Positions 1-28,121 of a DNA stretch of 42,540 bases are shown here, piece after piece. The position numbers and the translations under genes are program-made. The DNA is from a virus (taxonomy: Duplodnaviria; Heunggongvirae; Uroviricota; Caudoviricetes). Numbering within the stretch: the stretch's first letter is position 1; every line of letters starts with the position of its first letter. The notes beneath the pieces were generated by a model. It saw only the letters and a program-made list of their open reading frames with translations. It did not search any database and was not told the origin of the DNA. The stretch lies in IMG/VR virus record IMGVR_UViG_2541047682_000006. One strand, 5' to 3'.

Positions 1-2109
1 TTACACCATACTGTTAACCTGGCCGGGTAATTCGCTAGCTGGAATACGAAAGGTATACCAGGCATAACGACAGCGTTTCCACAGGCTGGAGAAATGGAGA
101 TGATAAAGGCAATCTGCAATAATTTCGTTATCTGGATATAAAGACTCGGCAAAATGTGTCCAGCGCGCACTGAGTTTCATGTTAAACAGTTTTTCATCTT
201 CTTTGTTACCATACAGGCGCGACAAAGTAATCATTGCTTCGAGCGTACCTTTATTCGCTTCTTCTTGTACCTGTTGGAGGTGCAAATGAGCAAGTGAGAG
301 TTCTTTCACCTCAAAGATATTAAGTAAAAAAAGCCCCCATGCTTTTTCATGTCCAGCTTCATGAGCCAGAAATAAATTGTCAAGGAGATTTTTTTCATAA
401 ATAGCCCGTGTTTCTTTAGAAATTTCTTGTTTATTTAGTGCCTGGTAGCAGATAGCAATGCTAAAATAAATATTTTGTAGATCTTGTTGATGTTCGCTAT
501 AACCATAATTTTTTACCAGTGGATAAGATACCGAGCTATGGAAATTTAGGTCATCTTGAAGTATTTTAAGTGCCCGTCGAAAATACTCCAAAGCTGTAGA
601 TGGTTCATAAGGTAATTTTGTATTGTCTTCCTTATCCAAATATTCAAGAGCAACTAAATTTAATGCGGCAGGAATATTTCTTTGCTTACCAATTGTCGCA
701 AGCGGAATGAAATAATCAGAAAGGTCAAACCAACTCAAATCTTTTATTGCCGACCGCCAATTATGATTGTATTTAATGTCACTAGTTTTTTCCAGCCAAG
801 CATCGCCCTGCCCTTCATCTTTTTCAAAACCCAAAATACCCTCTCGCTGGAAAAACCCCCTATAAATAACAGGTGTAGCATAAGTTGTATTCTGTGAATT
901 TTGGCAGATAAAATTATATATCCAGAATGAATCTGGATAATAACTTAATGCAAATTTTATCGCGTACGCAGTGTAATAATTATTGAGCTTCATGTCTTCC
1001 ATCACCGCTCGCTGTATACAGCACCACAACTTATCGTGATCGTTCTGCTTGTTATAGCAGGCAAGTAACCACTCTAGGGCATTATGGCGACATTCCTGAA
1101 ATTGTGCGTACTGAGCAATATTCTCTGCTAAGTCGATTGCATATTGTTGCTCCTCGGGCGCAATGTCCTCAATGCTGACATCTCGGTAATCATCCCACCA
1201 AAGTAAGAGATCCATATAGTCATGTTCTTCGGTAGATAAGTGCTTACAGGTTACTGAATCCAGCAATTCGGAAATTTCTTTATGCGACCCTCCCCAGCGT
1301 GGCATTCGAAATGGTATATATTCAACAAAAGGATAAAAAGTGTGAGGAAAAATAGTCAGGCAAACAGAAAGCCAATATTTTTGCCCACCATCATCATCAT
1401 ACTCAGGAAGTATATTGGGGCGAGGCAAAACGGGGCATATTGCATGCTCAAACGAAAGTCCGGAATACGCCATCAACGCTTCCACTTCTTGCGGGGAGCG
1501 GCGGTGATAATTTTTCAGTGCGATCATTAATGGTATTCCTGCGACACTATCACCGTTAAGGTGTGCCGCCAGCCAGGCTGGCTGACCAAATACTTTTGAG
1601 TTGGTGCTGGTAAGTAATGCAGCCATCCATTGTCGTGGGTCACAATCAATTGCTTTAAGTGTAGCGATGACCATTTGTTCATTACATGCACCAGCACAAA
1701 GCCACATTGCATGTGTGGTATCATTTGCCCAGCCATAACTGCGATATAACCATGCACGGTGATTCCAGTATTGTGCTTCGGCAAGCCAGGCATGTGTAGA
1801 ATGAGGTCTTGCTTGCTGCCAGGTTTTAATGAGTCTTAAACCTTCTGTTCCGGCATCAACTAGCGTGTTCATATCATAAAAATAGTTGCACATTTGGGTC
1901 CAGGATAAAAAATAGCGCTTTTCAGCCTGACGAGAAGTGAAACTCTCCTGTAATACCTGGTTATAAATTTCATCTAGTTCCTGATAACGTTTTTCTTGTA
2001 ACATATAAGGAATATTTGCGATTTGCCATTTTCTCTCAAGAGTATTAAGTGGCATTTTTTGGTCACACATCTTTTGCATTGCACTGAGTAAACGAGCATC
2101 CTGTTCCAT
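1..2109 (-). CDS. Hypothetical protein (~702 aa), Trp/Tyr/Cys-rich; third gene of an AT-rich three-gene operon
   Basis: ORF track 1..2148 (stop codon is the first 3 nt of the window). ATG at 2107-2109 is preceded by an AAGGA Shine-Dalgarno and lies 10 nt after the stop of the upstream gene, so it is preferred over the ATG at 2148. No motif I can assign. Confidence 0.6.
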   Translation of the reverse strand: MEQDARLLSAMQKMCDQKMPLNTLERKWQIANIPYMLQEKRYQELDEIYNQVLQESFTSRQAEKRYFLSWTQMCNYFYDMNTLVDAGTEGLRLIKTWQQARPHSTHAWLAEAQYWNHRAWLYRSYGWANDTTHAMWLCAGACNEQMVIATLKAIDCDPRQWMAALLTSTNSKVFGQPAWLAAHLNGDSVAGIPLMIALKNYHRRSPQEVEALMAYSGLSFEHAICPVLPRPNILPEYDDDGGQKYWLSVCLTIFPHTFYPFVEYIPFRMPRWGGSHKEISELLDSVTCKHLSTEEHDYMDLLLWWDDYRDVSIEDIAPEEQQYAIDLAENIAQYAQFQECRHNALEWLLACYNKQNDHDKLWCCIQRAVMEDMKLNNYYTAYAIKFALSYYPDSFWIYNFICQNSQNTTYATPVIYRGFFQREGILGFEKDEGQGDAWLEKTSDIKYNHNWRSAIKDLSWFDLSDYFIPLATIGKQRNIPAALNLVALEYLDKEDNTKLPYEPSTALEYFRRALKILQDDLNFHSSVSYPLVKNYGYSEHQQDLQNIYFSIAICYQALNKQEISKETRAIYEKNLLDNLFLAHEAGHEKAWGLFLLNIFEVKELSLAHLHLQQVQEEANKGTLEAMITLSRLYGNKEDEKLFNMKLSARWTHFAESLYPDNEIIADCLYHLHFSSLWKRCRYAWYTFRIPASELPGQVNSMV

Positions 2110-2119
2110 AGATATCCTT

Positions 2120-2836
2120 TTAATTAGGTTCAAAAATTTTAAATTCATTCCACGGCAATTTTTTCCAGTTACTGGATGGATCTTTCAACCATGCAGTGAC
2201 TTCCTTTAAATCACGGTTCGCAGTGGCGACGGGGGTATCGTATATCATTAACCATTTTTGTCGGGCGCGAACATAAGCACTGGCATAATCTTCCCATGAA
2301 GCGAAACAATCTTGTGCTCTTTGAGCATTCAGTAATAACACTATCCAGGCCTGGTTTTCATCGCACCAGCCTAAACCGGCGATGCAACGAGTTAAAAAAG
2401 CAGTGCGCATACAGTCAAACGCCAGCCCATCCAGAACCTGGCCTTGTGCTGCCAGTTGTTCGTAAAAATCATGTGGAGAATTACCAAGCCCTGTAGCCCA
2501 GCGCTGTAATATAACGCCAATTTGTTGACGGAAATCTTCGTTGCTTTGGTAAGTTTCTGTTCCTAGCTCTTGTTTAACCTGTAGTGCAAGTTGTTGACGC
2601 TTATCATCAGTCAACTTTAAATCTAACGTGAAGCCATTTACTGACAGTCCATTACGACGAGCAACTATATCACCAATTGCTAATGCCCACTTACGTCTCT
2701 TTGTTGCTCGTCTTTTGTCCTTGATTAGATCCTTTTCTTTTTCTTTAGCAATAAAAGCATCGATTTGTGGTTTGTTTTTTTTGTATCTATAGATAAAAAT
2801 AAATATTGCGACCAGGAGAACAATGATAAGACTCAT
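2120..2836 (-). CDS. Membrane-anchored hypothetical protein (N-terminal hydrophobic helix; possibly DUF1266-like by recollection)
   Basis: 238-aa ORF. N-terminus LIIVLLVAIFIFIY is a predicted transmembrane segment followed by a basic stretch. Start ATG overlaps the stop of the upstream gene by 1 nt (TAATG), indicating translational coupling. Confidence 0.55.
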   Translation of the reverse strand: MSLIIVLLVAIFIFIYRYKKNKPQIDAFIAKEKEKDLIKDKRRATKRRKWALAIGDIVARRNGLSVNGFTLDLKLTDDKRQQLALQVKQELGTETYQSNEDFRQQIGVILQRWATGLGNSPHDFYEQLAAQGQVLDGLAFDCMRTAFLTRCIAGLGWCDENQAWIVLLLNAQRAQDCFASWEDYASAYVRARQKWLMIYDTPVATANRDLKEVTAWLKDPSSNWKKLPWNEFKIFEPN

Positions 2837-4050
2837 TATTTTTCAACCTCTGACAGGGGTAAGTAATGAGATGTCTGTAATGTCAAACTCTCTATCTCAA
2901 AGGAAATGTTGCTGATATTTTGACCTGCAAATTGCGGATGCCACTCAGCGCCAGGGAATAACATTTCCGCAGAAGTAGCAACTATAGGGTCAATAGCATT
3001 AAGATAATGTAACTTATCAGGTGCGCTGTGTAACAGTAACCACTGCAACTCCACTGAAGGATTTGTAAAATGTTCTAATAAATGAAAGTTATTATGTAGT
3101 ACGCTTAGTAAAAAACTGGTTTCGTATACTTCCGTTACATATTTCCACCCCTGATATTCAGGTGTATTTTCATAAACAATACCCATACCTTCACAATCAC
3201 TATGTCGAACTGCTTGTGGTGATAATAGTTGCAAAAGAGACAAAACATCGTCCGCATATTTTTTAACTGGATGACGATTTTGCTTACCTTTTATTTGATC
3301 AATTTCAAGTGAATCACCAACAACATTGAGAGCAATAGTAACATGAGGAATATTATTATTATCACGCAAACTGAATAACCGTAATTTATGTTGCTCAATT
3401 TGATTTGCATAATACTCACCATAACCACCGGTAAGATTTTTTCGATCATCAAACTGGCCTACGCAATGTTGCATATGCCATGATTCATAAGCCATTTCAC
3501 GACGAAGGTTCGAATGACTGGCATCAAACTCAACAATTTTTCCGTCTGGCACATCAAGTATTGACTTTACAGTATTTTGTTCACTCGGCTGCCACCCTTT
3601 CTCGCGTCGTTGAAGCATCTTTTCATGCTCTTCTTCACGCATTCTGAACGCAACGTAGCAGGTTATGCGCTGTAGTTTTGATTCCAGACGGGTACCACAT
3701 TTCCTGGAAAGAAATTCCACCAACTCCCGTTCTTTGGTTAATATTTGTTGATGATCGGTTTCGATATAATAAAGTGTCGCAGTTGATACTGAGGCAGTAT
3801 TAAACTTCGATACCAGCCATTCCGGGATTACATCATCATTTTTATTAAACAGTGAATATTCTGCAAGCGAGTTAATTTGTTGCACCATTGGAAAGTCACT
3901 AATTAGCCATCGATAAAAATGGTTGAGTAACCATTTTTGGATGGTCTCATTATCCTGGCGAAACAGACTTCTTTGCAAAATTGCTGTTTTTACTTCCGGG
4001 GCATTAATTACATCCCTTGCATTATAATTCTGGTGAATATTTCCAGTCAT
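2836..4050 (-). CDS. Hypothetical protein (404 aa), first gene of the three-gene operon
   Basis: Long ORF with ATG start at 4048-4050 and a ~480-bp AT-rich upstream region facing yegQ; no recognisable catalytic motif. Confidence 0.55.
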   Translation of the reverse strand: MTGNIHQNYNARDVINAPEVKTAILQRSLFRQDNETIQKWLLNHFYRWLISDFPMVQQINSLAEYSLFNKNDDVIPEWLVSKFNTASVSTATLYYIETDHQQILTKERELVEFLSRKCGTRLESKLQRITCYVAFRMREEEHEKMLQRREKGWQPSEQNTVKSILDVPDGKIVEFDASHSNLRREMAYESWHMQHCVGQFDDRKNLTGGYGEYYANQIEQHKLRLFSLRDNNNIPHVTIALNVVGDSLEIDQIKGKQNRHPVKKYADDVLSLLQLLSPQAVRHSDCEGMGIVYENTPEYQGWKYVTEVYETSFLLSVLHNNFHLLEHFTNPSVELQWLLLHSAPDKLHYLNAIDPIVATSAEMLFPGAEWHPQFAGQNISNISFEIESLTLQTSHYLPLSEVEK

Positions 4051-4537
4051 AACATCCGCCCGTGTTTATTATATCACTCAAAGCAATAATTGTTGACTAT
4101 AGATTTTTTATCTAAATCAGCATGGTTGCAGGTACATACTCAAGTAAGCCACTCAAGAAAATAACGTAAACTCAATAGTGGCAGCGTCACAAACTTTGGA
4201 AATTATGTCTTATATTTGCAGTTTATTTTAGTGAATAATTGAGATAAATGACATTATTTTACATCCTCAATAATTCAGGCTGTAAGAGGACGGCAAATAC
4301 ATTCATAATTATCAGGGGATGAACATTCAGGAAAGTAGTCAGTATCGTCAACTTTTTCTTTTATCACTACATGAAGATTTCGTGTAGATACTCCCATCTC
4401 TGCCACTTCTCCCCTCACATTTACACTGGAGCTAAACCCGCCGATTGCGCTACAATGCCCGCCCTTAAAGTGGGGGCACTCCCCTAACCGCTTCATCAGG
4501 TGAAGCGGCTCTGACCTGTCATCAGAACGAGAGAATT

Positions 4538-5899
4538 ATGTTTAAACCGGAACTCCTTTCCCCGGCGGGAACGCTGAAAAATATGCGTTACGCTTTCGCT
4601 TATGGCGCAGATGCTGTTTATGCGGGCCAGCCGCGTTACTCCCTGCGTGTACGCAACAACGAATTCAACCACGAAAATCTTCAGCTCGGCATCAATGAAG
4701 CCCACGCGCTGGGGAAAAAGTTTTATGTCGTGGTCAACATTGCACCGCACAACGCCAAGCTGAAAACCTTTATCCGTGACCTGAAACCGGTGGTGGAAAT
4801 GGGGCCGGATGCGCTGATTATGTCCGATCCAGGGCTGATTATGCTGGTGCGTGAACACTTCCCGGAAATGCCAATCCACCTCTCGGTACAGGCTAACGCC
4901 GTAAACTGGGCGACGGTGAAATTCTGGCAGCAAATGGGTCTGACCCGCGTGATCCTCTCTCGCGAACTGTCACTGGAAGAGATTGAAGAGATCCGCAATC
5001 AGGTGCCGGATATGGAGATCGAAATCTTCGTTCACGGCGCGCTGTGCATGGCCTACTCCGGTCGCTGCCTGCTCTCTGGCTATATCAACAAGCGCGACCC
5101 GAACCAGGGCACCTGCACCAACGCCTGCCGCTGGGAGTACAATGTCCAGGAAGGGAAAGAAGATGACGTCGGCAACATCGTACACAAGTACGAGCCGATT
5201 CCGGTGCAAAATGTTGAGCCGACGCTGGGTATCGGCGCGCCAACCGACAAAGTGTTTATGATCGAAGAAGCCCAGCGTCCGGGCGAGTATATGACCGCGT
5301 TTGAAGATGAGCACGGCACTTACATCATGAACTCGAAAGATCTGCGCGCCATCGCCCATGTTGAACGCCTGACCAAAATGGGCGTGCATTCGCTGAAAAT
5401 CGAAGGCCGTACCAAATCTTTCTACTATTGCGCACGCACCGCGCAGGTTTACCGTAAAGCTATCGATGACGCCGCTGCGGGCAAACCGTTCGATACCAGC
5501 CTGCTGGAAACGCTGGAAGGTCTGGCGCATCGTGGCTATACCGAAGGTTTCCTGCGTCGTCATACCCACGACGATTATCAGAACTACGAATACGGTTATT
5601 CGGTTTCTGACCGCCAGCAGTTTGTTGGTGAGTTTACCGGTGAGCGCAAGGGGGAGCTCGCGGCGGTAGCGGTGAAAAATAAATTCTCCGTTGGCGACAG
5701 CCTTGAGCTGATGACGCCGCAAGGCAACATTAACTTTACCCTTGAGCATATGGAAAACGCCAAAGGTGAAGCGATGCCGGTCGCACCAGGCGATGGTTAT
5801 ACTGTGTGGCTCCCGGTGCCGCAGGATCTTGAGCTAAATTACGCGCTGCTGATGCGTAATTTCTCCGGGGAAACCACGCGTAACCCCCACGGTAAGTGA
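4538..5899 (+). CDS. yegQ: U32-family peptidase-like protein YegQ (TrhP, tRNA hydroxylation)
   Basis: 453-aa ORF whose translation (MFKPELLSPAGTLKNMRYAFAYGADAVYAGQPRYSLR...) matches my recollection of E. coli YegQ; the Cys-rich segment CTNACRWEY is typical of the U32 family. Confidence 0.9.
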   Translation: MFKPELLSPAGTLKNMRYAFAYGADAVYAGQPRYSLRVRNNEFNHENLQLGINEAHALGKKFYVVVNIAPHNAKLKTFIRDLKPVVEMGPDALIMSDPGLIMLVREHFPEMPIHLSVQANAVNWATVKFWQQMGLTRVILSRELSLEEIEEIRNQVPDMEIEIFVHGALCMAYSGRCLLSGYINKRDPNQGTCTNACRWEYNVQEGKEDDVGNIVHKYEPIPVQNVEPTLGIGAPTDKVFMIEEAQRPGEYMTAFEDEHGTYIMNSKDLRAIAHVERLTKMGVHSLKIEGRTKSFYYCARTAQVYRKAIDDAAAGKPFDTSLLETLEGLAHRGYTEGFLRRHTHDDYQNYEYGYSVSDRQQFVGEFTGERKGELAAVAVKNKFSVGDSLELMTPQGNINFTLEHMENAKGEAMPVAPGDGYTVWLPVPQDLELNYALLMRNFSGETTRNPHGK

Positions 5900-5983
5900 T
5901 TAATTTCGATTATTTTTCCCGGATGGAAAATTCTTAGAAACCGATCACATACAGCTGCATTTATTAAGGTTATCATCCGTTTC

Positions 5984-6070
5984 GCTGAAAAACATAACCC
6001 ATAAAATGCTAGCTGTACCAGGAACCACCTCCTTAGCCTGTGTAATCTCCCTTACGCAGGCTTATTTTTT
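5984..6070 (+). ncRNA. cyaR: CyaR (RyeE) Hfq-dependent sRNA; its 3' terminator end overlaps the prophage attL core
   Basis: 87-nt sequence GCTGAAAAACATAACCCATAAAATGCTAGCTGTACCAGGAACCACCTCCTTAGCCTG...CTTATTTTTT matches the CyaR sRNA as I recall it, ending in a hairpin plus T-tract; position between yegQ and ogr is as in E. coli K-12. Confidence 0.8.
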
Positions 6071-6071
6071 A
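6045..6071. repeat. Prophage attL: 27-bp P2-type integration core (AATCTCCCTTACgcaGGCTTATTTTTTA)
   Basis: Repeated in direct orientation at 41869-41895 with 3 central mismatches; the two copies bracket the whole prophage (ogr side and int side). Confidence 0.7.
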
Positions 6072-6134
6072 CGCGTAACACAATGAAATAAAAGGATTTA
6101 TTTCTGGTCACGTCCACACATTGACCACATCGAC

Positions 6135-6158
6135 AAAAAAGCCCCTCGACTGAGGGGC
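6135..6158 (-). terminator. Rho-independent terminator downstream of ogr
   Basis: GCCCCTC/GAGGGGC stem with 4-nt loop at 6141-6158, followed on the minus strand by a T6 tract (A6 at 6135-6140 on plus). Confidence 0.5.
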
Positions 6159-6171
6159 TTCCTGTTTGTAA

Positions 6172-6390
6172 TTACATCCACATAATTTGCTGCCCTGACG
6201 GCAACGGGTGCGGTCTTACGGCGTGGACTTCTCCCGGCTTCACGATGTATCGCTGTACCGACTCATAAGTGATGAATGTGGCGCTGCAATTCACGTTCTG
6301 ACACTGGTGATAACGCTCTTTTGTCGTGTCAGTGATATAGCGGCTTGTACGCGCATGTGCGGCATGCTGGCATAAAGGACAATGAAACAT
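6172..6390 (-). CDS. ogr: Ogr zinc-finger late-gene transcription activator (P2 Ogr)
   Basis: 72-aa product MFHCPLCQHAAHARTSRYITDTTKERYHQCQNVNCSATF... with a C-x2-C...C-x4-C zinc finger; ATG at 6388-6390 chosen within the longer track ORF 6172..6453. Confidence 0.9.
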   Translation of the reverse strand: MFHCPLCQHAAHARTSRYITDTTKERYHQCQNVNCSATFITYESVQRYIVKPGEVHAVRPHPLPSGQQIMWM

Positions 6391-6471
6391 CGCGAGCACC
6401 TCTTCCGGTTTTGTTGATGGTGCTATTTTAGTTAATTTATCCTTATAAAACAAATAGATAAAATAAAAACA

Positions 6472-7635
6472 TCACTCATCATCTTCTGTTTCGTACTCCA
6501 CATCAGAAAGCCTGACCTCAAGCTCCAAGGACGTCGTGAAGCCGCTATTATTCAGAAAATGTGTCACCTTAGTGATTGTCCAGTCCTGCTCGTCTATGAC
6601 GCGCTTAAAGCCTGACACTTTAACCGGTGTTTCCGTGTAAATATCTGCCCGACCGGTAGCCAGGCTGATGGAGAACTCCGCAACGCCCCGTTGCAGCTTA
6701 TCCCACTTCGCCTGAGCGGCGCGCATGGCCTGCGCTTTCGTGGCATATACCGCGGTCAGGGCAAAAACATTGTCAGCCTCACCTGCCATGTATTCACCTT
6801 CGCGCGCTTCCGGTACTTTTGGCGCTTTCTTCTGCGTGACTGGTTTCGCTTTCGGGTGCTCCAGTGCGCGCAGGTGTTTCTCTTTCTTTTTGCGTTTCAG
6901 TTTTACCTTCTGCTTTTGTGGCTTCGGGTCTTTGGTGTGTAACCACTTTGCCGTTACGCCGGTATAGGCTCCACGGTCAGCAATCGCAAAATGATGGCGG
7001 TCGCCGTCGCTGCGGGTGATGGTAATCTGCGGGATTTTTTTACCGCTGGCCGTCACCCCCTGCCCCGCCTTGAGAAACAACAGTTTTCCCATTTTTACCG
7101 ACACCTCACCGCCGTTGCGTTCAGCAAGGCGGGTCAGGAATTTTGCATCAGACTCCTGCGACTGGTCGATGTGCGGGATTTTAATTCCGGCCAGTGACGG
7201 AGCGACACTGGCTTCCAGCCTGTTACGGGAGGCTATCGCTTCAACAATCGCACCGAGCGTGGTGTCATGCCAGGAGCCTTCACGGCGGGAATTGAGCGTC
7301 CCGCGAAAATCTGCACTCCGGGCGCGGATGGTGACCACATCCGGTGCGCCCCGGTGTTCAACCTCATCAACGGTAAATTTCCCTTTGCATACCAGGGCAA
7401 AACCTTTCCAGCCGATATACACCGTCAGGACAGCGCCACGAACCGGCAGCCCGACCTGCCCGTCGGCATCGTTCAGTTCAATATCAAGCTGGTCAGCCTC
7501 AAAGCCCCGGTTATCCGTCAGGGTCATGCTCATCAGACGGTCGCTGATATTGCCGGTAATATCCCTGTTGTCGAGCATCAGCATGTAATCCGGCGTCAGC
7601 GTACTGCCTGCATCAAATGTCAGTGCATCCAGCAT
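6472..7635 (-). CDS. D: P2 gpD-like tail protein (late control gene D)
   Basis: 387-aa ORF at the P2 position between U and ogr; ATG verified at 7633-7635. Confidence 0.85.
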   Translation of the reverse strand: MLDALTFDAGSTLTPDYMLMLDNRDITGNISDRLMSMTLTDNRGFEADQLDIELNDADGQVGLPVRGAVLTVYIGWKGFALVCKGKFTVDEVEHRGAPDVVTIRARSADFRGTLNSRREGSWHDTTLGAIVEAIASRNRLEASVAPSLAGIKIPHIDQSQESDAKFLTRLAERNGGEVSVKMGKLLFLKAGQGVTASGKKIPQITITRSDGDRHHFAIADRGAYTGVTAKWLHTKDPKPQKQKVKLKRKKKEKHLRALEHPKAKPVTQKKAPKVPEAREGEYMAGEADNVFALTAVYATKAQAMRAAQAKWDKLQRGVAEFSISLATGRADIYTETPVKVSGFKRVIDEQDWTITKVTHFLNNSGFTTSLELEVRLSDVEYETEDDE

Positions 7636-8114
7636 TATCCCGCCCCCGTCATATCCGTGAATTTAGTCGCCATACTGCCAGCCTTACCGATGAGCGATTC
7701 TGCCTGTTTACCGATATCGCCATAAAGCGCGGCCAGTGATTCATCAACGCGGGTGAGCGACAGCGTAAAATCAATTTTCCGGGGTGTGCCGTCTGCAAAG
7801 AAAATACTCCCTGTTTCACTCACCCTGCTGATGACATACATGCCGTAAATCATGCCGGTGCCATCCAGCAACGGCCACGCCCGGCCTTCCTCAGCCATCA
7901 GCCTGAGCGTGGTCATCGTCAGCTTGCCGCCGGTCAGTTCGGGATAAAGCACACCGGCAAGCGTGATATTTTCCTCGCCAACACCGAGAAACTGAAAGGC
8001 ATCCCGTTTGCCGATACGGGAATTTGACGCCCAGCGATAATCTGATTCACGCTGCATGGTCTGGTGTGGCAGCGTCTGGCGCATAAAAACAAACATACCT
8101 AACGCGAGCATCAT
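7635..8114 (-). CDS. U: P2 gpU-like tail protein
   Basis: 159-aa ORF between T and D, overlapping the D start by 1 nt. Confidence 0.85.
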   Translation of the reverse strand: MMLALGMFVFMRQTLPHQTMQRESDYRWASNSRIGKRDAFQFLGVGEENITLAGVLYPELTGGKLTMTTLRLMAEEGRAWPLLDGTGMIYGMYVISRVSETGSIFFADGTPRKIDFTLSLTRVDESLAALYGDIGKQAESLIGKAGSMATKFTDMTGAG

Positions 8115-8128
8115 TTTTCGTCACCTCC

Positions 8129-10576
8129 TTAACCGTCATGCATCATGCTGGCACGGGCGCGCGCACGTTTATCCCGCTCGTATTTTTCGAGCGCATCCTG
8201 TAACTGGCGGTCAAGCTGTGTCCCCGGCGCAGTACCACCCGTCAGGCTGATGTGATATTCGTTTTTACTCTGGTCCACATAAGAGCGGCCAGCCGGTGCC
8301 GTGACCGGCTGATAAGCCTGATAGCCTGCATAAGAGCTGGTCGCCGGAATATAACCACCGGTGCCATACGTGGCGGCATGAGTTCTGGCGGCGGTCTGGT
8401 CAAGTGTGTCTGACTCTTTGTTGATAACACCGAGTTTTTCCAGTACCCAGTCAATACCGCTGCGCAGTTTGTTGAACGCATTAAGCGGCAGCATCAGCGC
8501 GTCAGCCAGTGCCTGCCCGAACATGACGCCCGTGTCACGGCAACGGTTCAGGGTGTCCCGGGTGGCTTTAACCGGAGCAATCAGGTTTGTAAACCACTGC
8601 CACGCGGCCTGTAACTTTTCGCCCAGCCAGTCAAACACCGGCTTAAGTGGCGTGAACAGCTCCCCCACCGGCGCAAATGCCGCTTTCAGCCCTTCAACCA
8701 CACCGCCAAAGAATGCGCTGACAGGCTCCCAGTATTTACGGATAAGCAACGCCCCGGCGACAATGGCAGCCACCACGGCCACAACCGGCCAGCTAATCGC
8801 CCCGATGGCCGTCATAACAGCACTGCCAACCGTCGTGAAGATTGCCCCCATTGCGCCTGCTGCCGCGATAATAGCATTGATGCCGGTGATAACCGGCCAG
8901 GCTACGAGGCCAATGGCACCAATGATGCCAGTCAGCGCCAGTGCACCACCGGCAATTAGGCCAATGGTTAACGCCAGTGATTTGTTTTTCTGGATCCAGC
9001 CGTCGAGTTTTAACACATACTTTGTGGCCGTCTGCGTGAGCTTACGCAGTGCGCCTTCCTGCTGGTCAAACAGGTCAGTCCCCACCGCCTCATAAGCGGA
9101 CTGAAACTCCTTAAAGTCACCGCCGAGGTTGTCCTGCATGATATTTACCAGTTCTGCGGTCTTTCCGTCTGAGGCTTTAAACGCAGCGGTCAGTTTGTCC
9201 AGCTTTCCGGTTGAGGCGGCAGTCATCAGCACGGCGGCGGCTGAACTGGCCTCCTCCCCGAAAATGGTTTTCATGTATTCAGCCTGCTGGGCAGTACCGA
9301 GCCGGTTTTTCTCAAAACTGGCCTGCATTTCTTTCAGAATGGTAAATACTGGTCGGGTGTTTCCCTTACTGTCTGAGGTTTTCACACCAAGCTCTTTGAG
9401 TGCATCCCATGCTTTTCCCGTCGGTGCCTGCAGGCGGCTTAACACGGCACGGCTTCCCGTTCCCGCCATTGAACCGGTAATTTTTGCATCATGCAGCGCC
9501 CCGACCATTGCGGCTGTTTCTTCAATGCTGACACCGGCATTTTTTGCCACAGGTGCGGCATAGGTCAGCGCATCGCTCATACCGTCAAAATCGGCGGCGG
9601 TTTTGTTCATCGTCATGGAGAGAACATCCCCGATATGAGCGACCTTATCGTTTGAAAGCTGAAAGGCGGATTTCATCCCCATCAGCAGGGCGGCGTTTTC
9701 TTCCATCGTGCGGCGGTTCGCCAGCGCCATATTCAGCGTGACCGGCGTTGCCGCCTGAATGGCATCAACATCCCCACCGGCTTTCGCAATGATAATCTGC
9801 GCACCGGCAGCATCATCCGCCGAGGCGGCTGTGTTGTCGCCGAGCTGGCGCGCCTGTTTGCGTAGCGCGGCCATTTCGGCAGAATCTTTTGCCACACCGA
9901 GCACGGCCTGTAATTCTGAGTTTTTCTGCGCAAACTCATAACCGGGCATCAGCAGCTTAACACCGGCCATCGTTCCCGCCGCCGCAATCCCCACACCGGC
10001 AGCGCCCACTGAGGCCATATTTCCGGCCAGTTCCTTTCCGGCCTGATAACGCTGTTTGACTGCGTTAAGTTTTGCCTGTTGCGCACTGACACGCGCCAGC
10101 GCGTCACGCTGCCGGTTAAGCTGGGCGGTGGTTTCACTGATACGGTTTTTCAGTCCCTGCTCATCATGTGCAAGATTGCGGGTATTAATTCCCACAGCGG
10201 CCAGTTCCCGCTGCTGGCGTTTAACGGAATCTGTCAGGCGGTTATATTTCGCCTGTAAGTCCTCCGCCGCACGCTTTGCGGATTCCAGCACTTTCGCCTG
10301 AGCACGGGTCGGGCGTTCGGTGTTTTTAAACTGTGTGGCAAGGGCTTCGGCCTGCTGCCGTGCCTTTTCAAGTGCATGACCAGTCACGGCGAGCTGTGCA
10401 CTGGTCTTGCGGAATCCCTCAATACGGGATGCGTGACCGTTCAGCTCGCGCAGTGATTTTTGTGTTTCCCGGATATCCCCCGACAGCAACTTACTCGCTG
10501 TGCGGATGGATTTAAACGGGCGGGACGCCTGGTCAACAGCCCTGAGCAATACCTGTAATTTTACATTGTTACTCAT
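8129..10576 (-). CDS. T: Tail tape measure protein (P2 gpT-like)
   Basis: 815-aa ORF with coiled-coil-rich N-terminal half and Gly/Ala-rich hydrophobic segment, downstream of E/E'. Confidence 0.85.
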   Translation of the reverse strand: MSNNVKLQVLLRAVDQASRPFKSIRTASKLLSGDIRETQKSLRELNGHASRIEGFRKTSAQLAVTGHALEKARQQAEALATQFKNTERPTRAQAKVLESAKRAAEDLQAKYNRLTDSVKRQQRELAAVGINTRNLAHDEQGLKNRISETTAQLNRQRDALARVSAQQAKLNAVKQRYQAGKELAGNMASVGAAGVGIAAAGTMAGVKLLMPGYEFAQKNSELQAVLGVAKDSAEMAALRKQARQLGDNTAASADDAAGAQIIIAKAGGDVDAIQAATPVTLNMALANRRTMEENAALLMGMKSAFQLSNDKVAHIGDVLSMTMNKTAADFDGMSDALTYAAPVAKNAGVSIEETAAMVGALHDAKITGSMAGTGSRAVLSRLQAPTGKAWDALKELGVKTSDSKGNTRPVFTILKEMQASFEKNRLGTAQQAEYMKTIFGEEASSAAAVLMTAASTGKLDKLTAAFKASDGKTAELVNIMQDNLGGDFKEFQSAYEAVGTDLFDQQEGALRKLTQTATKYVLKLDGWIQKNKSLALTIGLIAGGALALTGIIGAIGLVAWPVITGINAIIAAAGAMGAIFTTVGSAVMTAIGAISWPVVAVVAAIVAGALLIRKYWEPVSAFFGGVVEGLKAAFAPVGELFTPLKPVFDWLGEKLQAAWQWFTNLIAPVKATRDTLNRCRDTGVMFGQALADALMLPLNAFNKLRSGIDWVLEKLGVINKESDTLDQTAARTHAATYGTGGYIPATSSYAGYQAYQPVTAPAGRSYVDQSKNEYHISLTGGTAPGTQLDRQLQDALEKYERDKRARARASMMHDG

Positions 10577-10996
10577 TCGTGTTTCCGCTTCGCCTGAGCG
10601 CCTTTTCGCGCCATGTGATGAGTTCGGTCAGGCTCATGGGATACAGTTCTGATGGCGGCCAGTGAAATATCACTGCCACATCCGCCATCAGGTCATCGAC
10701 CGACAGATTTTTCGGAAGCGTCACTGCACCGAGTTCGGCGACAAAAAACCGACCACCTTACCGGCCAGCGCCACAAGGTCAGGCAGTTCCAGCGCGGCGA
10801 CTTCCTGCTCGGTCAGCATCGGTGCCGTCATGCGCGGCAGCACCTTAATCAGTGCATCGACTTCGGAGTTCGCGACCGCAGCCAGACTGACACCGCGCAG
10901 CGTCCCGGCATTAGGTTTCATCAGCGTGACCTGTTCGATAACCTGCTCACCACGCTTGACCGGATTGTCCAGGGTAATCACATTTTCTTTGTTCAT
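10569..10996 (-). CDS. E+E': gpE+E' programmed -1 frameshift product (tail assembly chaperone)
   Basis: Slippery heptamer TTTTTTG (mRNA sense; plus 10742-10748) inside E; manual translation of the -1 frame runs to a TAA at 10569-10571, overlapping the start of T, as in P2. Confidence 0.7.
10721..10996 (-). CDS. E: Tail assembly chaperone gpE
   Basis: 91-aa ORF ending ...VVGFLSPNSVQ; contains the slippery site for E+E'. Confidence 0.85.
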   Translation of the reverse strand: MNKENVITLDNPVKRGEQVIEQVTLMKPNAGTLRGVSLAAVANSEVDALIKVLPRMTAPMLTEQEVAALELPDLVALAGKVVGFLSPNSVQ

Positions 10997-11052
10997 GGTT
11001 TTCTCACTTCTGAATCGGGGTTAACCGGTCAGCCAGGCTGACCGGATGAAAA

Positions 11053-11571
11053 TCACAGGCCGATATTGCGGCGGTGTTGCTCCAGCCGGTCGACGCCGTT
11101 CACCTTCTCAATCATGTTGATGGTGTCGATTTCGACCAGCTCCTTACCGTCCATCGTCAGCCGGAAATAGGTGCAGACCACGGAGATTTTCGACTCGGTG
11201 TCTTCTCCCTGTTTGCCCTCGCCGGTGTCGATTTCTTTCTGACGTCCACGCATGACCACCTCGACGGCCACCGTTTCGCCGGTATCGTCGCGCTGGTAAG
11301 AGCCTGCAAAACGAATCGGTACGGAATCCACACCGGTTGCGGCGTAAAGCTCCCAGATAACCGAATCCGGGAAGCCACCGAGCGACCACTCCATTGACAG
11401 CGCATCGTCATCAAGGCCGAGGTCTACCGGTGCGCTGCCGTTCATCCCCGCACCGCGATAGTTTTCGAGCTTACGGGTCAGTTTTGGTAGCGTGACGGAC
11501 TTCGCGACGCCCTGATAGCTGTAGCCGTTCAGAAAGACGTTCATTAACTTGAGTTTGCGCGGCATTGCCAT
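11053..11571 (-). CDS. FII: Tail tube protein (P2 gpFII-like)
   Basis: 172-aa ORF, ATG at 11569-11571, immediately after FI. Confidence 0.85.
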   Translation of the reverse strand: MAMPRKLKLMNVFLNGYSYQGVAKSVTLPKLTRKLENYRGAGMNGSAPVDLGLDDDALSMEWSLGGFPDSVIWELYAATGVDSVPIRFAGSYQRDDTGETVAVEVVMRGRQKEIDTGEGKQGEDTESKISVVCTYFRLTMDGKELVEIDTINMIEKVNGVDRLEQHRRNIGL

Positions 11572-12776
11572 CGGTCAGGCTCCTTATAATTGCTGTTAAC
11601 CGAGGTGACCAGATTTGCCAGGTATTTATCGGTAATACGCTGGCGCAGGGTCAGGTTTTCAAGAGGAGGCACCGGTGTATAGTCGTAGTCGATATACAGT
11701 TTTCCGGCCTTGAGGGTTTCCGCATCGTTGGATTCTTCGCTGAACCAGCAGGTCGCATCCACGATATAGCCGTTTGTTTTCAGCTCACGGAATTTGGCAT
11801 TGATGCCGTCAACGATGTCGCGAATCAGCGTTGCGGTGATGGGCTTGTCCACCGCCCACATGTGCGCCTCAGCCATCGTGTCAGCCAGTACCTGCGCGGT
11901 GCGGGTGTAGTTTTCAAAGAGGAACAGCGGGTCATCAGAGCAGGTACGGTTACCCCAGAATCGGAAACCGTCGCGGCGAATCAGCGTAGTGACGCCTGAC
12001 TCGTTAAGCAGGTCAGCATCGGTGCCGGACTCCTGCAAATCCCAGAATACAGATGCGCTGATGCCGGTAACACCGTTTACCCCGACGTTGGACAGCGTTT
12101 TATGCCAGCCCTGCTCCTGGTCGATTTTAGCGCGCAGACCCAGCGCACGGGCGGTGGCATACGCGGTAGCGGTGGTACTGGTGACCGTATCCCATGCGAG
12201 GAAATCCGGCCAGATGACCATCAGCTCACGCTGGCTGAAATTCTGGCGGTAGGCTTTCACCTCGGAAATGGTCTTACAGCCCCATGCGCTGATATATCCG
12301 AAAGCGCGCAGCTTCTGACAGACGGATGCCAGTGCAACAGCCACCTCTTTGGTATCCAGTCCCGGCACACCGAGAATACGCGGTTTAACACCGGTTACCG
12401 ACTCCGCCGCCAGCAGGGCTTTTAGTCCGGTGTACTGACCGTTTTCGTCGGTGGTGCCGATGATATTGGAAACGGTCTGCGCGAGTTTCGTTTCCTCGTC
12501 ATCACCGGTGCAGTCTTCCACGCGCACGACAACGGTGACCGGTTTTGACTGGTCAGCGATGGCCTGCAACGATGCCGCCAGCGTGCCTTTTTTACCGGCC
12601 TTTGCAATTGCGCTTTGCACATTGGTAATCAGCACCGGTTTATTGAGGGGGAAGGTTTCCGCATCCGCATCGCTGGCCGTGCAGACCATGCCGACAATGG
12701 CAGTGGATACGGTGGAAATGACGCGGGTGCCGTCGTTAATCTCCAGCACCTGCACGCCATGATGATAGTCACTCAT
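11544..12776 (-). CDS. FI: Contractile tail sheath protein (P2 gpFI-like)
   Basis: 410-aa ORF, first gene of the FI-FII-E-T-U-D block; its 3' end overlaps the FII start by 28 nt. Confidence 0.85.
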   Translation of the reverse strand: MSDYHHGVQVLEINDGTRVISTVSTAIVGMVCTASDADAETFPLNKPVLITNVQSAIAKAGKKGTLAASLQAIADQSKPVTVVVRVEDCTGDDEETKLAQTVSNIIGTTDENGQYTGLKALLAAESVTGVKPRILGVPGLDTKEVAVALASVCQKLRAFGYISAWGCKTISEVKAYRQNFSQRELMVIWPDFLAWDTVTSTTATAYATARALGLRAKIDQEQGWHKTLSNVGVNGVTGISASVFWDLQESGTDADLLNESGVTTLIRRDGFRFWGNRTCSDDPLFLFENYTRTAQVLADTMAEAHMWAVDKPITATLIRDIVDGINAKFRELKTNGYIVDATCWFSEESNDAETLKAGKLYIDYDYTPVPPLENLTLRQRITDKYLANLVTSVNSNYKEPDRWQCRANSS

Positions 12777-12871
12777 CCGTTTAACTCCGTGGTTAATGGG
12801 TACAACTATTTTCTGTTGTGCAGAGCATAAGACGCTATTTGACCTGGCTGGTCAGTGGATGAAACAACAGA

Positions 12872-12899
12872 TAAAGAAAAGGCGGGCAATTCGCCCGCC
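12872..12899 (-). terminator. Rho-independent terminator (minus strand) separating the cargo/tail-fibre transcripts from the FI operon
   Basis: GC-rich stem GGCGGGC/GCCCGCC (12881-12899, 5-nt loop) followed on the minus strand by a T-rich run (plus AGAAAA at 12875-12880). Confidence 0.5.
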
Positions 12900-12962
12900 T
12901 GTCCTGATTTGTACTCACTCATTTTCCGCCTGACAATTTACATAGCCCAAATGCTATCAAAC

Positions 12963-12974
12963 CTGACAGTCTGC
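12963..12974. repeat. 12-bp repeat CTGACAGTCTGC (copy 1), at the left edge of the AT-rich cargo island
   Basis: Exact 12-bp inverted match to 15395-15406 and 11-bp direct match to 15273-15283. Confidence 0.6.
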
Positions 12975-13106
12975 TTTGAGCGAAAAGTGGACATTAGAGT
13001 TACAAAAGCAAGTTTAAATCATCCAAAATATTACAATGTCCTTATCTATCTGATATCGTTATGATAAAAAGCTCCTGAATATAATCGATAGTAGGTGGTT
13101 ATTTCC

Positions 13107-13484
13107 ATGAAATCAATTTTAGAGGTCTTTACTCAAGGAAATACTAAAGAAAAACTGGCTGTTATCGCCGATCTCACAACCATTGCGGGAATATCGATTG
13201 CAACTATTATTGCTGGTTTGTTAACCCTAGTTGCAAAAACAGATAAACTAGATGTTGGAAATCTGTTTGGAGTTGTCATAATATCTCTGCTCGGATTGGC
13301 TGGTGTTTGCTGTTTTGTGGCCTTATTTATTTGGGTTATAACCCAAATGTCTAAACCATGGGGAACACCTCGGGGGGTTCAGCCCTTAGTTAAGTGTGCT
13401 ATTTCCCTTATCTTTATCTGTATGTTTTTGCTGGCTGTCTTTACATTTTATGAGTTTATTTCTTCGATGAGCATACGCTATTGA
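13107..13484 (+). CDS. Small hydrophobic membrane protein (~125 aa, 3-4 predicted TM helices), hypothetical
   Basis: Track ORF 13095..13484 (GTG); ATG at 13107 with an upstream AGGTGG. Hydrophobic stretches IAGISIATIIAGLLTLVA, VVIISLLGLAGVCCFVALFIWVI, ISLIFICMFLLAVFTFY. AT-rich; convergent with the recombinase gene. Confidence 0.5.
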   Translation: MKSILEVFTQGNTKEKLAVIADLTTIAGISIATIIAGLLTLVAKTDKLDVGNLFGVVIISLLGLAGVCCFVALFIWVITQMSKPWGTPRGVQPLVKCAISLIFICMFLLAVFTFYEFISSMSIRY

Positions 13485-13506
13485 ATATAAAATCAGCCCC
13501 CATAAC

Positions 13507-14091
13507 TTAAAAGAGACCTTCTATATCGACTTCAATGCCCAAATAACGGACTGTGCTTTCCAGTTTCTTATGGCCCAACAGAAGTTGGATCACCCGGAGA
13601 CTCTTGGTTTTCTTGTAGATTAAGTAAGGTTTTGTTCTTCTCATGGAATGTGTGCTGTACAGCGAATCTTCGAGACCAAGCTTTTCTACCCACCCATGAA
13701 AAATTCGGTTGTATTGCCGGGTTGATATATGGTGGTTAGTTCCGACCCGAGAGCGGAACAGGAAGCCTTTACTATGCCAGTTGCCGAGCTTTATCAATGC
13801 AGTAACCGCTTCCCTTGTCCCTTTGGTTATCTCAAATTGGACAGGGCTGCCGGTTTTCTGTTGCAACACCGTTGCTCTGCTTGAGACAGAACTGCCATAT
13901 GCAGCATCTGATACTTTGAGTTTGACCAAATCACAGCCCCGTAGCTTAGTGTCCAAAGCCATGTTGAACAGAGCTAGATCGCGTGTTTTACCTTCCAACT
14001 CAAGTCTAATCCGGATCCCCCAGATATGAAATATCTGAAGTGGCCTTTTTTGACCGATGGTACGGTCTTTATTCCACGGTGACGTTTTCAT
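13507..14091 (-). CDS. Small tyrosine site-specific recombinase (FimB/FimE-like invertase/integrase catalytic domain, ~194 aa)
   Basis: Translation carries the tyrosine-recombinase motifs in order: Arg box (ALDTKLRGCDLVKLKVSD), HSMRRT (H-x-x-R), LLGH, and RYLG (nucleophile Tyr). ATG at 14089-14091 with AGGAG Shine-Dalgarno; the track ORF starts upstream at a TTG. Confidence 0.7.
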   Translation of the reverse strand: MKTSPWNKDRTIGQKRPLQIFHIWGIRIRLELEGKTRDLALFNMALDTKLRGCDLVKLKVSDAAYGSSVSSRATVLQQKTGSPVQFEITKGTREAVTALIKLGNWHSKGFLFRSRVGTNHHISTRQYNRIFHGWVEKLGLEDSLYSTHSMRRTKPYLIYKKTKSLRVIQLLLGHKKLESTVRYLGIEVDIEGLF

Positions 14092-14197
14092 ATTCAAATC
14101 TCCTGCAATGTGGGAGATTTGAGTATGGTTGTCTCTCAAGAGCGAAAATAAGTCAACTATCACTAGTTGTTGCGCATGTACGTATTCTGTCAATTAA

Positions 14198-15040
14198 TTA
14201 TTGACAATCATCAATTCTGGAATGATCAAAATCATCATATCGAATTATAGTCTGGTTGACTGTATCTATTGTTGGTGTCATTTCTGTTATAATATCCTGA
14301 TAACCTAAAGAGTTAAATACATTTACTAAGGCCTCACACCGAAGGGCCGTAGCAATTACAAAATTATAAATTGCCAGCCGTTTATTTTCTTGTTTAACTG
14401 CAAGAATGAATTCGATAGCAGTATTTTCATCACTTTGGATTGCATTATATAGAGATACTATATTTACCATATCATCAGAGAATGTATGTATTGAATCACA
14501 AAGGGGAACGTAATGGGCATGATAGTGTGTTTCCCAGCCAATTAATTCAAAAAGTCTTCTGGTTCCTGGATATTCAGGTGTATTTGGCCACAATCTATTA
14601 AATAGATCAGTTAGTTCTTTTCCCATGCGAATCCTTTCATTTGCTGCTGGATTAGTCATTCCTTTGGATTTTAAACACTCCAGCCACCGTTTTCCATTAC
14701 TATGAACTAATTTCTTACTAGCCTTGAGTAATGCTTGTGCATTTTCGCCATCATCTATTGCTATATAAAATTGATTGGCAGCCTGTTCTATTATAACCCT
14801 AGCTAATACTTCCGATGCTGAAAAGGCTCCTATATTCAAAGAAGAGATAGCCTGATTACTAAGTTCATTCAGTACATTAAAGTACTGTAAGACCATCAAT
14901 TTTTGTTCCACACCCTTTAGGTTGTCTATTTTATTTTTATGCTCCTCAAATTTTGCATGGATATATTTATTTATCGCGGCTATTTTTTTTACATCTTCGT
15001 CAAGATCAAACGGGCAACGTCCAAACAATTCTTTTTTCAT
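14198..15040 (-). CDS. Hypothetical protein (280 aa), AT-rich cargo gene directly upstream of the recombinase
   Basis: ORF with ATG start and AGGAG Shine-Dalgarno; 4-nt gap to the recombinase ORF; preceded by a 420-bp noncoding leader containing the repeat copies. Confidence 0.6.
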   Translation of the reverse strand: MKKELFGRCPFDLDEDVKKIAAINKYIHAKFEEHKNKIDNLKGVEQKLMVLQYFNVLNELSNQAISSLNIGAFSASEVLARVIIEQAANQFYIAIDDGENAQALLKASKKLVHSNGKRWLECLKSKGMTNPAANERIRMGKELTDLFNRLWPNTPEYPGTRRLFELIGWETHYHAHYVPLCDSIHTFSDDMVNIVSLYNAIQSDENTAIEFILAVKQENKRLAIYNFVIATALRCEALVNVFNSLGYQDIITEMTPTIDTVNQTIIRYDDFDHSRIDDCQ

Positions 15041-27274: not shown

Positions 27275-27360
27275 TTGCGTATTACCGTGAAGGAGATCGG
27301 TGAGTAACATCGATGGAGATCGGTTCGTGTCACTTTCACAGAACCGTTTTTAAATTACCT

Positions 27361-28110
27361 TCACTGATCTCCTTCGGTCAACGGAGATTGTATTTTCCGC
27401 ATTGATTCTCCTTTAAGTTCGATCTTGATACTGCCATGAACCAGTCGATCTAGGATGGCATCCGCATGTGTGGAGTCTCCGATCATTTTGTACCAGTTTT
27501 CCACCGGCAACTGGCTCACTACGATGATTGAGCCTCGTTGGTACATCAGATCCACTATTTCCAGCAGGTCGCTACGCTGTTCTGATGAGAGAGGTTCCAG
27601 CCCCCAGTCATCCAGAAGCAGCAGATCGCTATTATTCAGCCTGGTCAAAAGTTTGCTGTATCTTCCATCAGCATGCCCCTGATAGCACTGTTCCATCAGC
27701 GCTTTAAGGCGATAATAGTAGACCTTGTATCCCTGTCGGCAGGCATTATGACCAAGTGCACATGCCAGGAACGTTTTACCGCTGCCGGTGGCCCCGGTCA
27801 GTAAAATATTTTGTTTCAGGGTTAACCAGTTTCCCTGACTGAGTGAACGGATGAGGGCCCTGTCCAGCCCTCTATTGTTACGATAATCCAGCTTTGATAA
27901 CTCAGCATTAAGTCTGAACCGTGCATGTTTGATCAGACGCTCTGCCTTCCTGTTTTCACGGCAGGTTAGTTCTTCTGCTGTCAGTAATGACAGGCGTTCT
28001 TCGAAGCCCAGCTCCTGGTATGTGCCCGGTTGAGCAAGTTGCTTTTTAAGCGCATCACGGAAGCCGGTGAGTTTAAGTGCGGTCAGTTGTTCGTAAAGAT
28101 GATTCATCAT
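27361..28110 (-). CDS. istB: IstB-like ATP-binding transposition helper (IS21 family)
   Basis: 249-aa ORF with Walker A (GATGSGKT) and Walker B (LLLLDDWG), typical of IstB. Confidence 0.85.
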   Translation of the reverse strand: MMNHLYEQLTALKLTGFRDALKKQLAQPGTYQELGFEERLSLLTAEELTCRENRKAERLIKHARFRLNAELSKLDYRNNRGLDRALIRSLSQGNWLTLKQNILLTGATGSGKTFLACALGHNACRQGYKVYYYRLKALMEQCYQGHADGRYSKLLTRLNNSDLLLLDDWGLEPLSSEQRSDLLEIVDLMYQRGSIIVVSQLPVENWYKMIGDSTHADAILDRLVHGSIKIELKGESMRKIQSPLTEGDQ

Positions 28111-28121
28111 TGGATCCCGTA

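Follow-up and report, generated by a model that had tools for sequence, protein, structure and literature searches.

A minus-strand cassette of PcfJ-like, DUF1266 and DUF4034/Sel1 genes beside yegQ that may encode a membrane-tethered enzyme-adaptor complex

Gene layout and islet boundaries between yegP and yegQ

The window analyzed here, a stretch of 42,540 nucleotides recorded as IMG/VR virus record IMGVR_UViG_2541047682_000006, opens with three minus-strand genes beside yegQ (trhP). These genes form a cassette coding for a PcfJ-like protein (gene 1), a DUF1266 protein (gene 2) and a DUF4034 protein with Sel1-like repeats (gene 3); it is kept at one locus in several enteric genera, yet none of the three proteins has a characterized homologue. 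An earlier note, made from the sequence of the window, had described three packed minus-strand genes of 404, 238 and about 702 amino acids, with a TAATG overlap at one junction and a 10-nt gap with a strong Shine-Dalgarno sequence at the other. The open reading frames and a direct reading of the junctions agree with this description, and the features at the left end of the window and just beyond it are as follows.

2836-4050, minus strand: gene 1, 404 amino acids, PcfJ superfamily
2120-2836, minus strand: gene 2, 238 amino acids, DUF1266
1-2109, minus strand: gene 3, 702 amino acids, DUF4034 plus Sel1-like repeats
2834-2838, minus strand: one-base overlap of genes 1 and 2 within TAATG (direct sequence reading)
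2110-2119, minus strand: 10-nt intercistronic spacer of genes 2 and 3, with the AAGGA Shine-Dalgarno sequence for gene 3 (direct sequence reading)
4068-4096, minus strand: candidate sigma-70-like promoter, TCAACA-17 nt-TG-n-TATAAT (consensus scan)
4051-4446, no strand: islet-specific AT-rich upstream region, 35.6% GC, with the right-hand islet boundary (blastn of alleles)
L001:8335-8940, minus strand, 60 nt beyond window position 1: fourth gene of the E. coli islet, 201 amino acids, lipoprotein-like, 45% GC

The shared strand, the overlapping and 10-nt junctions, and the retention of gene order and tight junctions in distant genera support reading the three genes as a putative operon, as had been proposed. 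The GC fraction is 0.38 for gene 1, 0.41 for gene 2 and 0.40 for gene 3, compared with 0.54 for yegQ, so the AT-richness reported relative to yegQ holds as well. Gene 3 can also be opened at an upstream start to give 715 amino acids; this version was rejected, as RefSeq and the orthologues of 702-703 amino acids favor 702. A single consensus promoter-like site lies upstream of gene 1. It matches 10 of the 12 consensus positions, has an extended -10 element and ends 18 nt upstream of the gene 1 ATG; the scan yielded no more sites than were found in shuffled sequence, and the candidate is a consensus match only.

E. coli PE144 matches window positions 1-13537 with a single mismatch, and its chromosome shows what lies beyond the window edge. 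There, yegP is intact and the genes form an islet between yegP and yegQ/trhP, rather than occupying the yegP position of K-12 as the note had placed them; nor is gene 3 the last gene, since the fourth co-oriented gene follows it after 60 nt. Alignment of the islet, K-12-like empty and ParDE alleles with blastn set the islet boundaries: the islet spans 5,202 bp, holds four genes and stands in place of some 21 bp found between yegP and yegQ at empty sites. On its right side the boundary lies at window position 4446/4447, where the K-12-like empty-site sequence resumes at 4447 and that of ParDE strains at 4417. An open reading frame of 73 amino acids without a family match (4275-4496, minus strand) spans this boundary region (4416/4446) and is probably not a gene.

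The islet is compositionally foreign in E. coli, with 39.6% GC compared with about 53% in the flanking baeSR and yegQ genes. The whole block is present in 298 of 5,426 complete E. coli genomes (about 5.5%), as a single chromosomal copy, and in 295 of these genomes the identity is 99% or higher. Among the carriers are CFT073, Nissle 1917, IHE3034, LF82, ATCC 25922 and APEC O1:K1:H7, which we take, from general knowledge rather than phylogroup typing, to be phylogroup B2 lineages. At the same spacer, non-carrier strains have either a ParD/ParE toxin-antitoxin pair (L002:6425-7019) or nothing. The ParDE and islet alleles have an additional 62 bp in common at the left end and 30 bp at the right end (window 4417-4446), and because both stretches are missing from the K-12-like empty sites, the alignment points to an origin of the empty site by deletion.

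We considered a mobile genomic island and rejected it: no integrase, transposase or tRNA is annotated in the islet, no repeats were found at its boundaries (L001 8245/13446), and no copy of the cassette was found on phages or true plasmids. The horizontal acquisition proposed in the note is thus borne out in part. It stands for E. coli, given the occurrence in 298 of 5,426 genomes, the clean empty or ParDE sites and the difference in GC content; it does not extend to a recent mobile element, for which the integrase, transposase and flanking repeat are all missing.

The N-terminus of the fourth gene product (MLMLKKGMMLVGLIFFSLPANAGC) resembles a lipoprotein signal, with a signal peptide followed by Cys (…LPANAGC). 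Searches of Pfam, PHROG and the PDB gave no match for it, and no homologue was found beside the cassette in other genera. At the equivalent position Salmonella has a gene for a 239-residue secreted protein (L011:10728-11447), unrelated to the E. coli fourth gene; Citrobacter and Buttiauxella have homologues of this Salmonella protein encoded on the upstream side of the cassette (L014, L016, L045). A conserved fourth partner was therefore rejected, the E. coli and Salmonella genes being mutually unrelated.

One published observation may bear on function. In a mouse bacteremia screen, CFT073 with a transposon in c2608 was one of the 50 most attenuated mutants, with a fitness factor of 9.56 where the cut-off was 6.41 (PMC3855560). 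Because yegQ is c2611 in this strain (PMC6727828) and the four islet genes precede yegQ, we infer that c2608 lies inside the islet, which would make this a possible phenotype of the cassette.

Protein families and distribution of the cassette

Profile searches assigned the three proteins to the PcfJ, DUF1266 and DUF4034 families, where the earlier reading had found no motif that it could assign with confidence. For gene 1, the match to Pfam PcfJ (PF14284) is marginal when taken alone, with 26.2 bits (cut-off 25) and an E-value of 7.5e-6 over residues 141-268. When the alignment of the gene-1 family was compared with distant PcfJ proteins by hhalign, the probability was 100%, with an E-value of 1.7e-42 over 276 columns. 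The PcfJ name comes from a gene of the Enterococcus conjugative plasmid pCF10; in the papers that we searched, PcfJ appears in gene lists only and no function is reported for it. A profile search of 1.84 billion cluster representatives identified about 2,170 PcfJ-superfamily clusters (50% identity), of which about 50 belong to the gene-1 orthologous family. The motifs EG..M.HCVG, SLRD, PH.T and Q.KGK.N..P occur in the window protein and are shared by at least 80% of the 46 representatives of distant clusters that were aligned; this alignment shows His195-Cys196 (in HCVG), SLRD, PHxT and QxKGKxN..P to be conserved across the superfamily. Among the invariant residues are E185, E189, H195-C196, R229, H236, Q252, K254-G255-K256, N258 and D285. 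A 14-residue insert after HCVG (QFDDRKNLTGGYGE) sets the gene-1 family apart within the superfamily.

Gene 1 has no hydrophobic segment by hydropathy and was placed in the cytoplasm. Its AlphaFold2 model, built from a 44-sequence alignment with a predicted local distance difference test score (pLDDT) of 88, consists of a helical N-terminal domain, a central alpha/beta core (approximately residues 160-305) and a helical C-terminal domain. Two structure-comparison methods returned for this model almost exclusively GCN5-related N-acetyltransferases (GNATs), with scores in the twilight range.

Gene 2 matches DUF1266 (PF06889) with 68.7 bits (cut-off 27) and an E-value of 9.5e-19. Hydropathy agrees with the N-terminal transmembrane anchor that had been reported: a single hydrophobic helix is followed by KKNK, and because these residues stand directly after the helix, the C-terminus is predicted to be cytoplasmic. 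The family carries the invariant motif LAFxCxRxAF...W.VLLLNAQRAQD.F.SW, and the model (pLDDT 85) is all-helical, with the transmembrane helix running on into a long helix. In the literature searched, DUF1266 appeared in a single paper, within a gene list that names a DUF1266 gene repressed by H-NS; this gene probably belongs to another locus.

Gene 3 contains a full-length DUF4034 domain (PF13226; 339.7 bits, E-value 1.7e-101) at residues 30-306, and the same domain is matched in all 20 aligned relatives; no paper on DUF4034 was found in the literature searched. Its C-terminal half is related to Sel1 repeats: the gene-3 family profile matched Sel1-repeat proteins in the PDB with E-values from 3.6e-27 to 1e-12 over profile positions of about 390-560. 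Pfam Sel1 itself is matched by 7 of the 20 family members, and the window protein on its own has no Sel1 match. Composition bears out the earlier description of gene 3 as rich in Trp and Tyr (3.4% and 6.3%), and neither a signal peptide nor a transmembrane segment was detected. We presume that gene 3 is a scaffold or client-binding subunit. NCBIfam added no family to genes 1-3 and PHROGs nothing useful, and searches of the PDB with single sequences and with profiles gave no solved structure related by sequence to the PcfJ-like or DUF1266 protein.

Gene 1 has 224 detectable homologues, and when a single genome of each species was scanned, 187 genomes, nearly all from beta- or gamma-proteobacteria, proved to have relatives. 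Of the 80 loci retrieved, 79 have a DUF1266 gene either immediately after the PcfJ-like gene or fused to it, the exception being a truncated contig. Judged from this gene organization, gene 2 is an obligate partner of gene 1. The two are separate genes in enterics and Burkholderia and a single polypeptide in Lysobacter, Rhizobium and several metagenomic lineages, with a linker in place of the DUF1266 transmembrane helix in the fused proteins. This fusion pattern argues that the PcfJ-like and DUF1266 proteins work together physically. An apparent DUF1266-DUF4034 fusion (P0135) looks like the product of an in-frame deletion and was not used as evidence.

As third partner a large protein of helical repeats is found throughout, and two types of locus can be distinguished by it. 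Type A loci have the DUF4034/Sel1 gene downstream and occur in enterics, Variovorax, the Burkholderia cepacia complex, Rhizobacter, Iodobacter, Chitinilyticum and Lysobacter. Type B loci, from genera that include Pseudomonas, Trinickia, Ralstonia, Cupriavidus, Delftia and Acidovorax, have a tetratricopeptide repeat (TPR) protein of about 800 amino acids, encoded directly upstream in 35 of 45. Homology between the DUF4034 protein and this TPR protein was rejected, the hhalign probability being 0.9%. Repeats are also joined to more distant PcfJ proteins: on one metagenomic contig (L097:170-8923) four PcfJ-domain proteins are encoded in tandem, of which three clearly match ankyrin repeats, with ankyrin-only neighbors beside them, and this array looks like a diversified paralogue family. 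The pairing of a PcfJ core with a protein-binding repeat module is recurrent, since it is found both as Sel1/TPR partners in the cassettes and as ankyrin fusions in distant PcfJ proteins.

The genes that flank the cassette differ in every lineage examined, and the trio therefore looks self-contained. In Niveibacterium terrae, a gene for a 522-residue TsiV-domain protein (PF11876; L094:2872-4440) lies directly upstream of a type B cassette and an IS110 transposase gene lies downstream; the TsiV-domain gene was rejected as a conserved neighbor, having been found in this genome only. Salmonella (STM2133-STM2135) and the Klebsiella and Citrobacter orthologues have the same three genes in the same order with the same tight junctions, at 57-66% protein identity. 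In Salmonella and Klebsiella, as in E. coli, the cassette occupies the baeR-yegQ interval, which we assume also for Citrobacter, Buttiauxella and Superficieibacter, whose flanks are not annotated. It is co-directional with baeR in Salmonella and Klebsiella, whereas in E. coli it is inverted, AT-rich and accompanied by the extra lipoprotein-like gene. The GC content of the cassette is 53-55% in Salmonella and Citrobacter, near host level there and in Buttiauxella, and host-like in Burkholderia; the Klebsiella cassette, at 49% compared with 58% in its flanks, is about 9 points below its surroundings. The Salmonella orthologue of gene 3 (STM2135/t0737) has been described only as a conserved gene of about 700 amino acids and unknown function that borders the orphan-immunity islet SAIDI-1 (PMC7400221).

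A tblastn search of 50,697 phage records with gene 1 as the query was negative, and the apparent plasmid matches of gene 1 are only megareplicons or chromids, or mis-assigned pieces of chromosome. Because other enterics have the cassette in the same interval, mostly with roughly host-like GC content, it has long been resident on proteobacterial chromosomes and is no recent mobile acquisition. The possibility named in the earlier note that these are broadly conserved core genes with a known housekeeping function is thus half realized: conservation is broad, but no known function accompanies it.

A proposed complex and the alternatives to it

The reading that we favor, to which we give a probability of about 0.4, is that the cassette encodes an enzyme-adaptor complex tethered to the inner membrane, with a repeat scaffold that selects the client to be modified. 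The three proteins would form a membrane-tethered complex in which the repeat scaffold (gene 3) binds the client, probably a protein, the DUF1266 protein (gene 2) acts as a bridge and anchors the assembly to the inner membrane, and the PcfJ-like subunit attaches a covalent modification to the client, through an acyl-type transfer that depends on Cys or through a related reaction. The analysis shows the gene anatomy, family membership, conservation, fusions and distribution; that the proteins form a complex, how they lie relative to the membrane, that they catalyze a reaction and what kind of client they have, we infer from the fold resemblance, the conserved residues, the fusions and the gene order.

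Four points weigh against this proposal. PcfJ-DUF1266 fusions lack the transmembrane helix, so membrane tethering is not essential everywhere. The DUF1266 model has no informative structural neighbor, which makes the bridging role a guess. The c2608 result comes from a single insertion, not individually validated, in a low-complexity pool. Finally, the closest analogue in K-12, the ybe/hscC locus, is itself functionally obscure.

A bolder extension, which we regard as speculative and unlikely, would make the PcfJ superfamily an unrecognized class of Cys/His-dependent transferases on a GNAT-like fold. The cassette would then be its chromosomal, housekeeping-type use, in which a DUF1266 plus Sel1/TPR platform, also that of the HscC system, brings the enzyme to clients near the inner membrane, with a role in bloodstream fitness of extra-intestinal pathogenic E. 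coli.

The accessory distribution of the islet in E. coli (298 of 5,426 genomes), its AT-richness and its variable position, which hosts ParDE in other strains, would also fit a system for anti-phage defense or another inter-genomic conflict, in which the scaffold senses an invader and the PcfJ-like enzyme is the effector, possibly through abortive infection. The derivation of the PcfJ name from a conjugative-plasmid gene and the tandem, diversified arrays of PcfJ domains fused to ankyrin repeats point the same way, as does the orphan-immunity islet hosted by the yegQ locus of S. Typhi (PMC7400221). We nevertheless consider this reading improbable. The cassette matches no known defense or toxin-antitoxin system, and no paper on its function was found; PADLOC 2.0 gave no match for genes 1 and 2 and for gene 3 a weak one (PDC-S32, E-value 0.0014) that was seen in only 1 of 20 family members. 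Gene 1 is absent from the phage records and from true plasmids, the cassette neighbors housekeeping genes and not defense islands, and its GC content is roughly host-like in Salmonella, Citrobacter and Buttiauxella, in the same interval, and host-like in Burkholderia.

Invariant polar residues (E, H, C, R, K, N and D) across the whole PcfJ superfamily are typical of an active site and count against a non-catalytic adaptor for proteostasis or assembly, in which the PcfJ-like protein would serve for binding or as a pseudo-enzyme and the cassette would work like YbeQ/R and YbeT/U with DjlB/DjlC-HscC. That reading draws on the DUF1266 and Sel1 components common to the cassette and the hscC locus, on the adaptor nature of the Sel1-repeat proteins matched in the PDB, such as SEL1L/Hrd3 and AlgK, and on the fact that no catalytic activity has been shown. 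As the PcfJ-like protein has no similarity to DjlC either, we think it quite unlikely.

The position beside baeSR in Escherichia, Salmonella and Klebsiella raises the question of an envelope-associated accessory of the BaeSR/MdtABCD stress-efflux neighborhood, one that, for example, modifies or assembles an inner-membrane or envelope component. The cassette also lies near an efflux operon of the resistance-nodulation-division type in Burkholderia and near creD and a two-component system in Lysobacter; gene 2 is membrane-anchored, and the fourth genes appear to code for exported proteins, lipoprotein-like in E. coli and with a signal peptide in Salmonella. This idea is also poorly favored, as a search of the upstream sequence in E. 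coli, Klebsiella, Salmonella, Citrobacter and Buttiauxella gave no BaeR-box motif, the E. coli cassette has the opposite orientation to that of the other enterics, its neighbors outside the enterics are unrelated, and genes 1 and 3 code for cytoplasmic proteins. An orphan-immunity or toxin-immunity cluster for interbacterial competition, like S. Typhi SAIDI-1, would share that chromosomal hotspot and recall the Sel1-like immunity proteins of some type VI secretion systems (PMC7400221) and the TsiV-domain gene upstream of the Niveibacterium cassette, but it is very improbable for large proteins, two of them cytoplasmic, that are conserved as a fixed trio with no adjacent toxin, VgrG, PAAR or CdiA gene in any locus examined and with a TsiV neighbor in one genome only.

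Genetic experiments on the cassette should be easy, because it is present in such widely used strains as CFT073, Nissle 1917, LF82, IHE3034 and ATCC 25922. At present the cassette is a well-defined lead in tractable strains, in which no surprising biology has yet been demonstrated.

Surrounding features and comparison with known systems

The remainder of the window carries several other features. The small RNA CyaR (Rfam RF00112, 100 bits) lies just downstream of yegQ/trhP at 5982-6067 on the plus strand. Between cyaR and yegR is a P2-like prophage (approximately 6172-41790, with coordinates mapped from the PE144 annotation), with ogr and gene D near 6172-7635 and the integrase near 40775-41788; K-12 retains only ogrK and D remnants at this site. 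An element of the IS21 family at 27277-29852 (istA 28122-29663, istB 27361-28110), with a duplicated junction of about 10 bp, interrupts the capsid-scaffold gene gpO and is absent from PE144. Because of this insertion in gpO, the prophage in the window is probably defective. The prophage also contains, at about 33485-35701, a gene for an AAA-family ATPase of 738 amino acids between the replication endonuclease and portal genes and, at 13107-15040, genes for a DUF5677 protein, a tyrosine-recombinase-like protein of 194 amino acids and a hypothetical protein between the tail-fibre assembly and tail-sheath genes. Both positions are presumably variable hotspots of P2-like prophages, and these genes are possible anti-phage cargo.

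The cassette is far from any known system, because no component has a characterized relative; its newness lies in this absence of characterized relatives and not in a demonstrated new mechanism. Three comparisons place it nonetheless.

The first is with GNATs such as HAT1, ESCO1, RibT, SpeG and RimL, whose order of secondary-structure elements (beta1-alpha1-alpha2-beta2-beta3-beta4-alpha3-beta5) is like that of the gene 1 model. The invariant, basic loop Q252-I-K-G-K-Q-N258 falls at the predicted beta4-alpha3 junction, which is the coenzyme A-pyrophosphate site in GNATs. Of GNAT motif A (Q/R-x-x-G-x-G/A), gene 1 offers there an approximation, Q252-I-K-G255-K-Q257, with a last position that is neither G nor A. 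A conserved His-Cys pair like that of gene 1 is not characteristic of GNATs, and the gene 1 core has helical domains on either side. Acetyltransferase families are absent from the gene 1 matches in Pfam and NCBIfam at E <= 1, and no sequence-profile relationship to GNATs was found. We treat the likeness as a resemblance at the level of the fold and not as membership. A type II toxin-antitoxin system with a GNAT toxin of the TacT/AtaT kind was also considered and rejected: gene 1, at 404 amino acids, has no acetyltransferase profile match, its partners are a 238-residue membrane protein and a 702-residue repeat protein, and no ribbon-helix-helix or helix-turn-helix antitoxin is present.

The second comparison is with PcfJ of pCF10 and the PcfJ proteins of mobile elements and metagenomes, which are homologous to gene 1 over about 280 residues, including the motifs HCVG, SLRD, PHxT and QxKGKxN. 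PcfJ-domain proteins are often joined to protein-binding repeats, for example ankyrin repeats. The cassette differs from mobile-element PcfJ in that it is chromosomal and always has a DUF1266 protein and a Sel1/TPR partner in trans. Should the PcfJ domain prove to be an enzyme, hundreds of PcfJ-domain proteins, the metagenomic ankyrin fusions included, would also be explained by its chemistry.

The third, with the closest analogue, is with E. coli K-12, which has two copies of a Sel1-gene/DUF1266-gene arrangement, ybeQ/ybeR-djlB and ybeT/ybeU-djlC, beside the Hsp70 gene hscC. When compared by hhalign, the DUF1266 protein of gene 2 matched YbeR with 91% and YbeU with 88% probability, and the C-terminal half of gene 3 matched YbeQ with 95%. 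At the K-12 loci the DUF1266 gene is translationally coupled to a gene for a J-domain protein, a co-chaperone that works as the effector with the Hsp70 HscC, whereas in the cassette that place is taken by the PcfJ-like protein, a putative enzyme; homology of the PcfJ-like protein to DjlC was rejected, no similarity having been found. The Sel1 gene is divergent at the K-12 loci and co-directional in the cassette, and K-12 has no DUF4034 domain like that of gene 3. Taken together, the comparison suggests that a DUF1266 and Sel1/TPR pair may be a reusable adaptor module to which a third gene gives the activity: a co-chaperone in K-12, a putative enzyme in the cassette. The DUF1266-Sel1 pairing common to both would also offer a way into the K-12 locus ybeQRS/ybeTUV-hscC, which has long been obscure.

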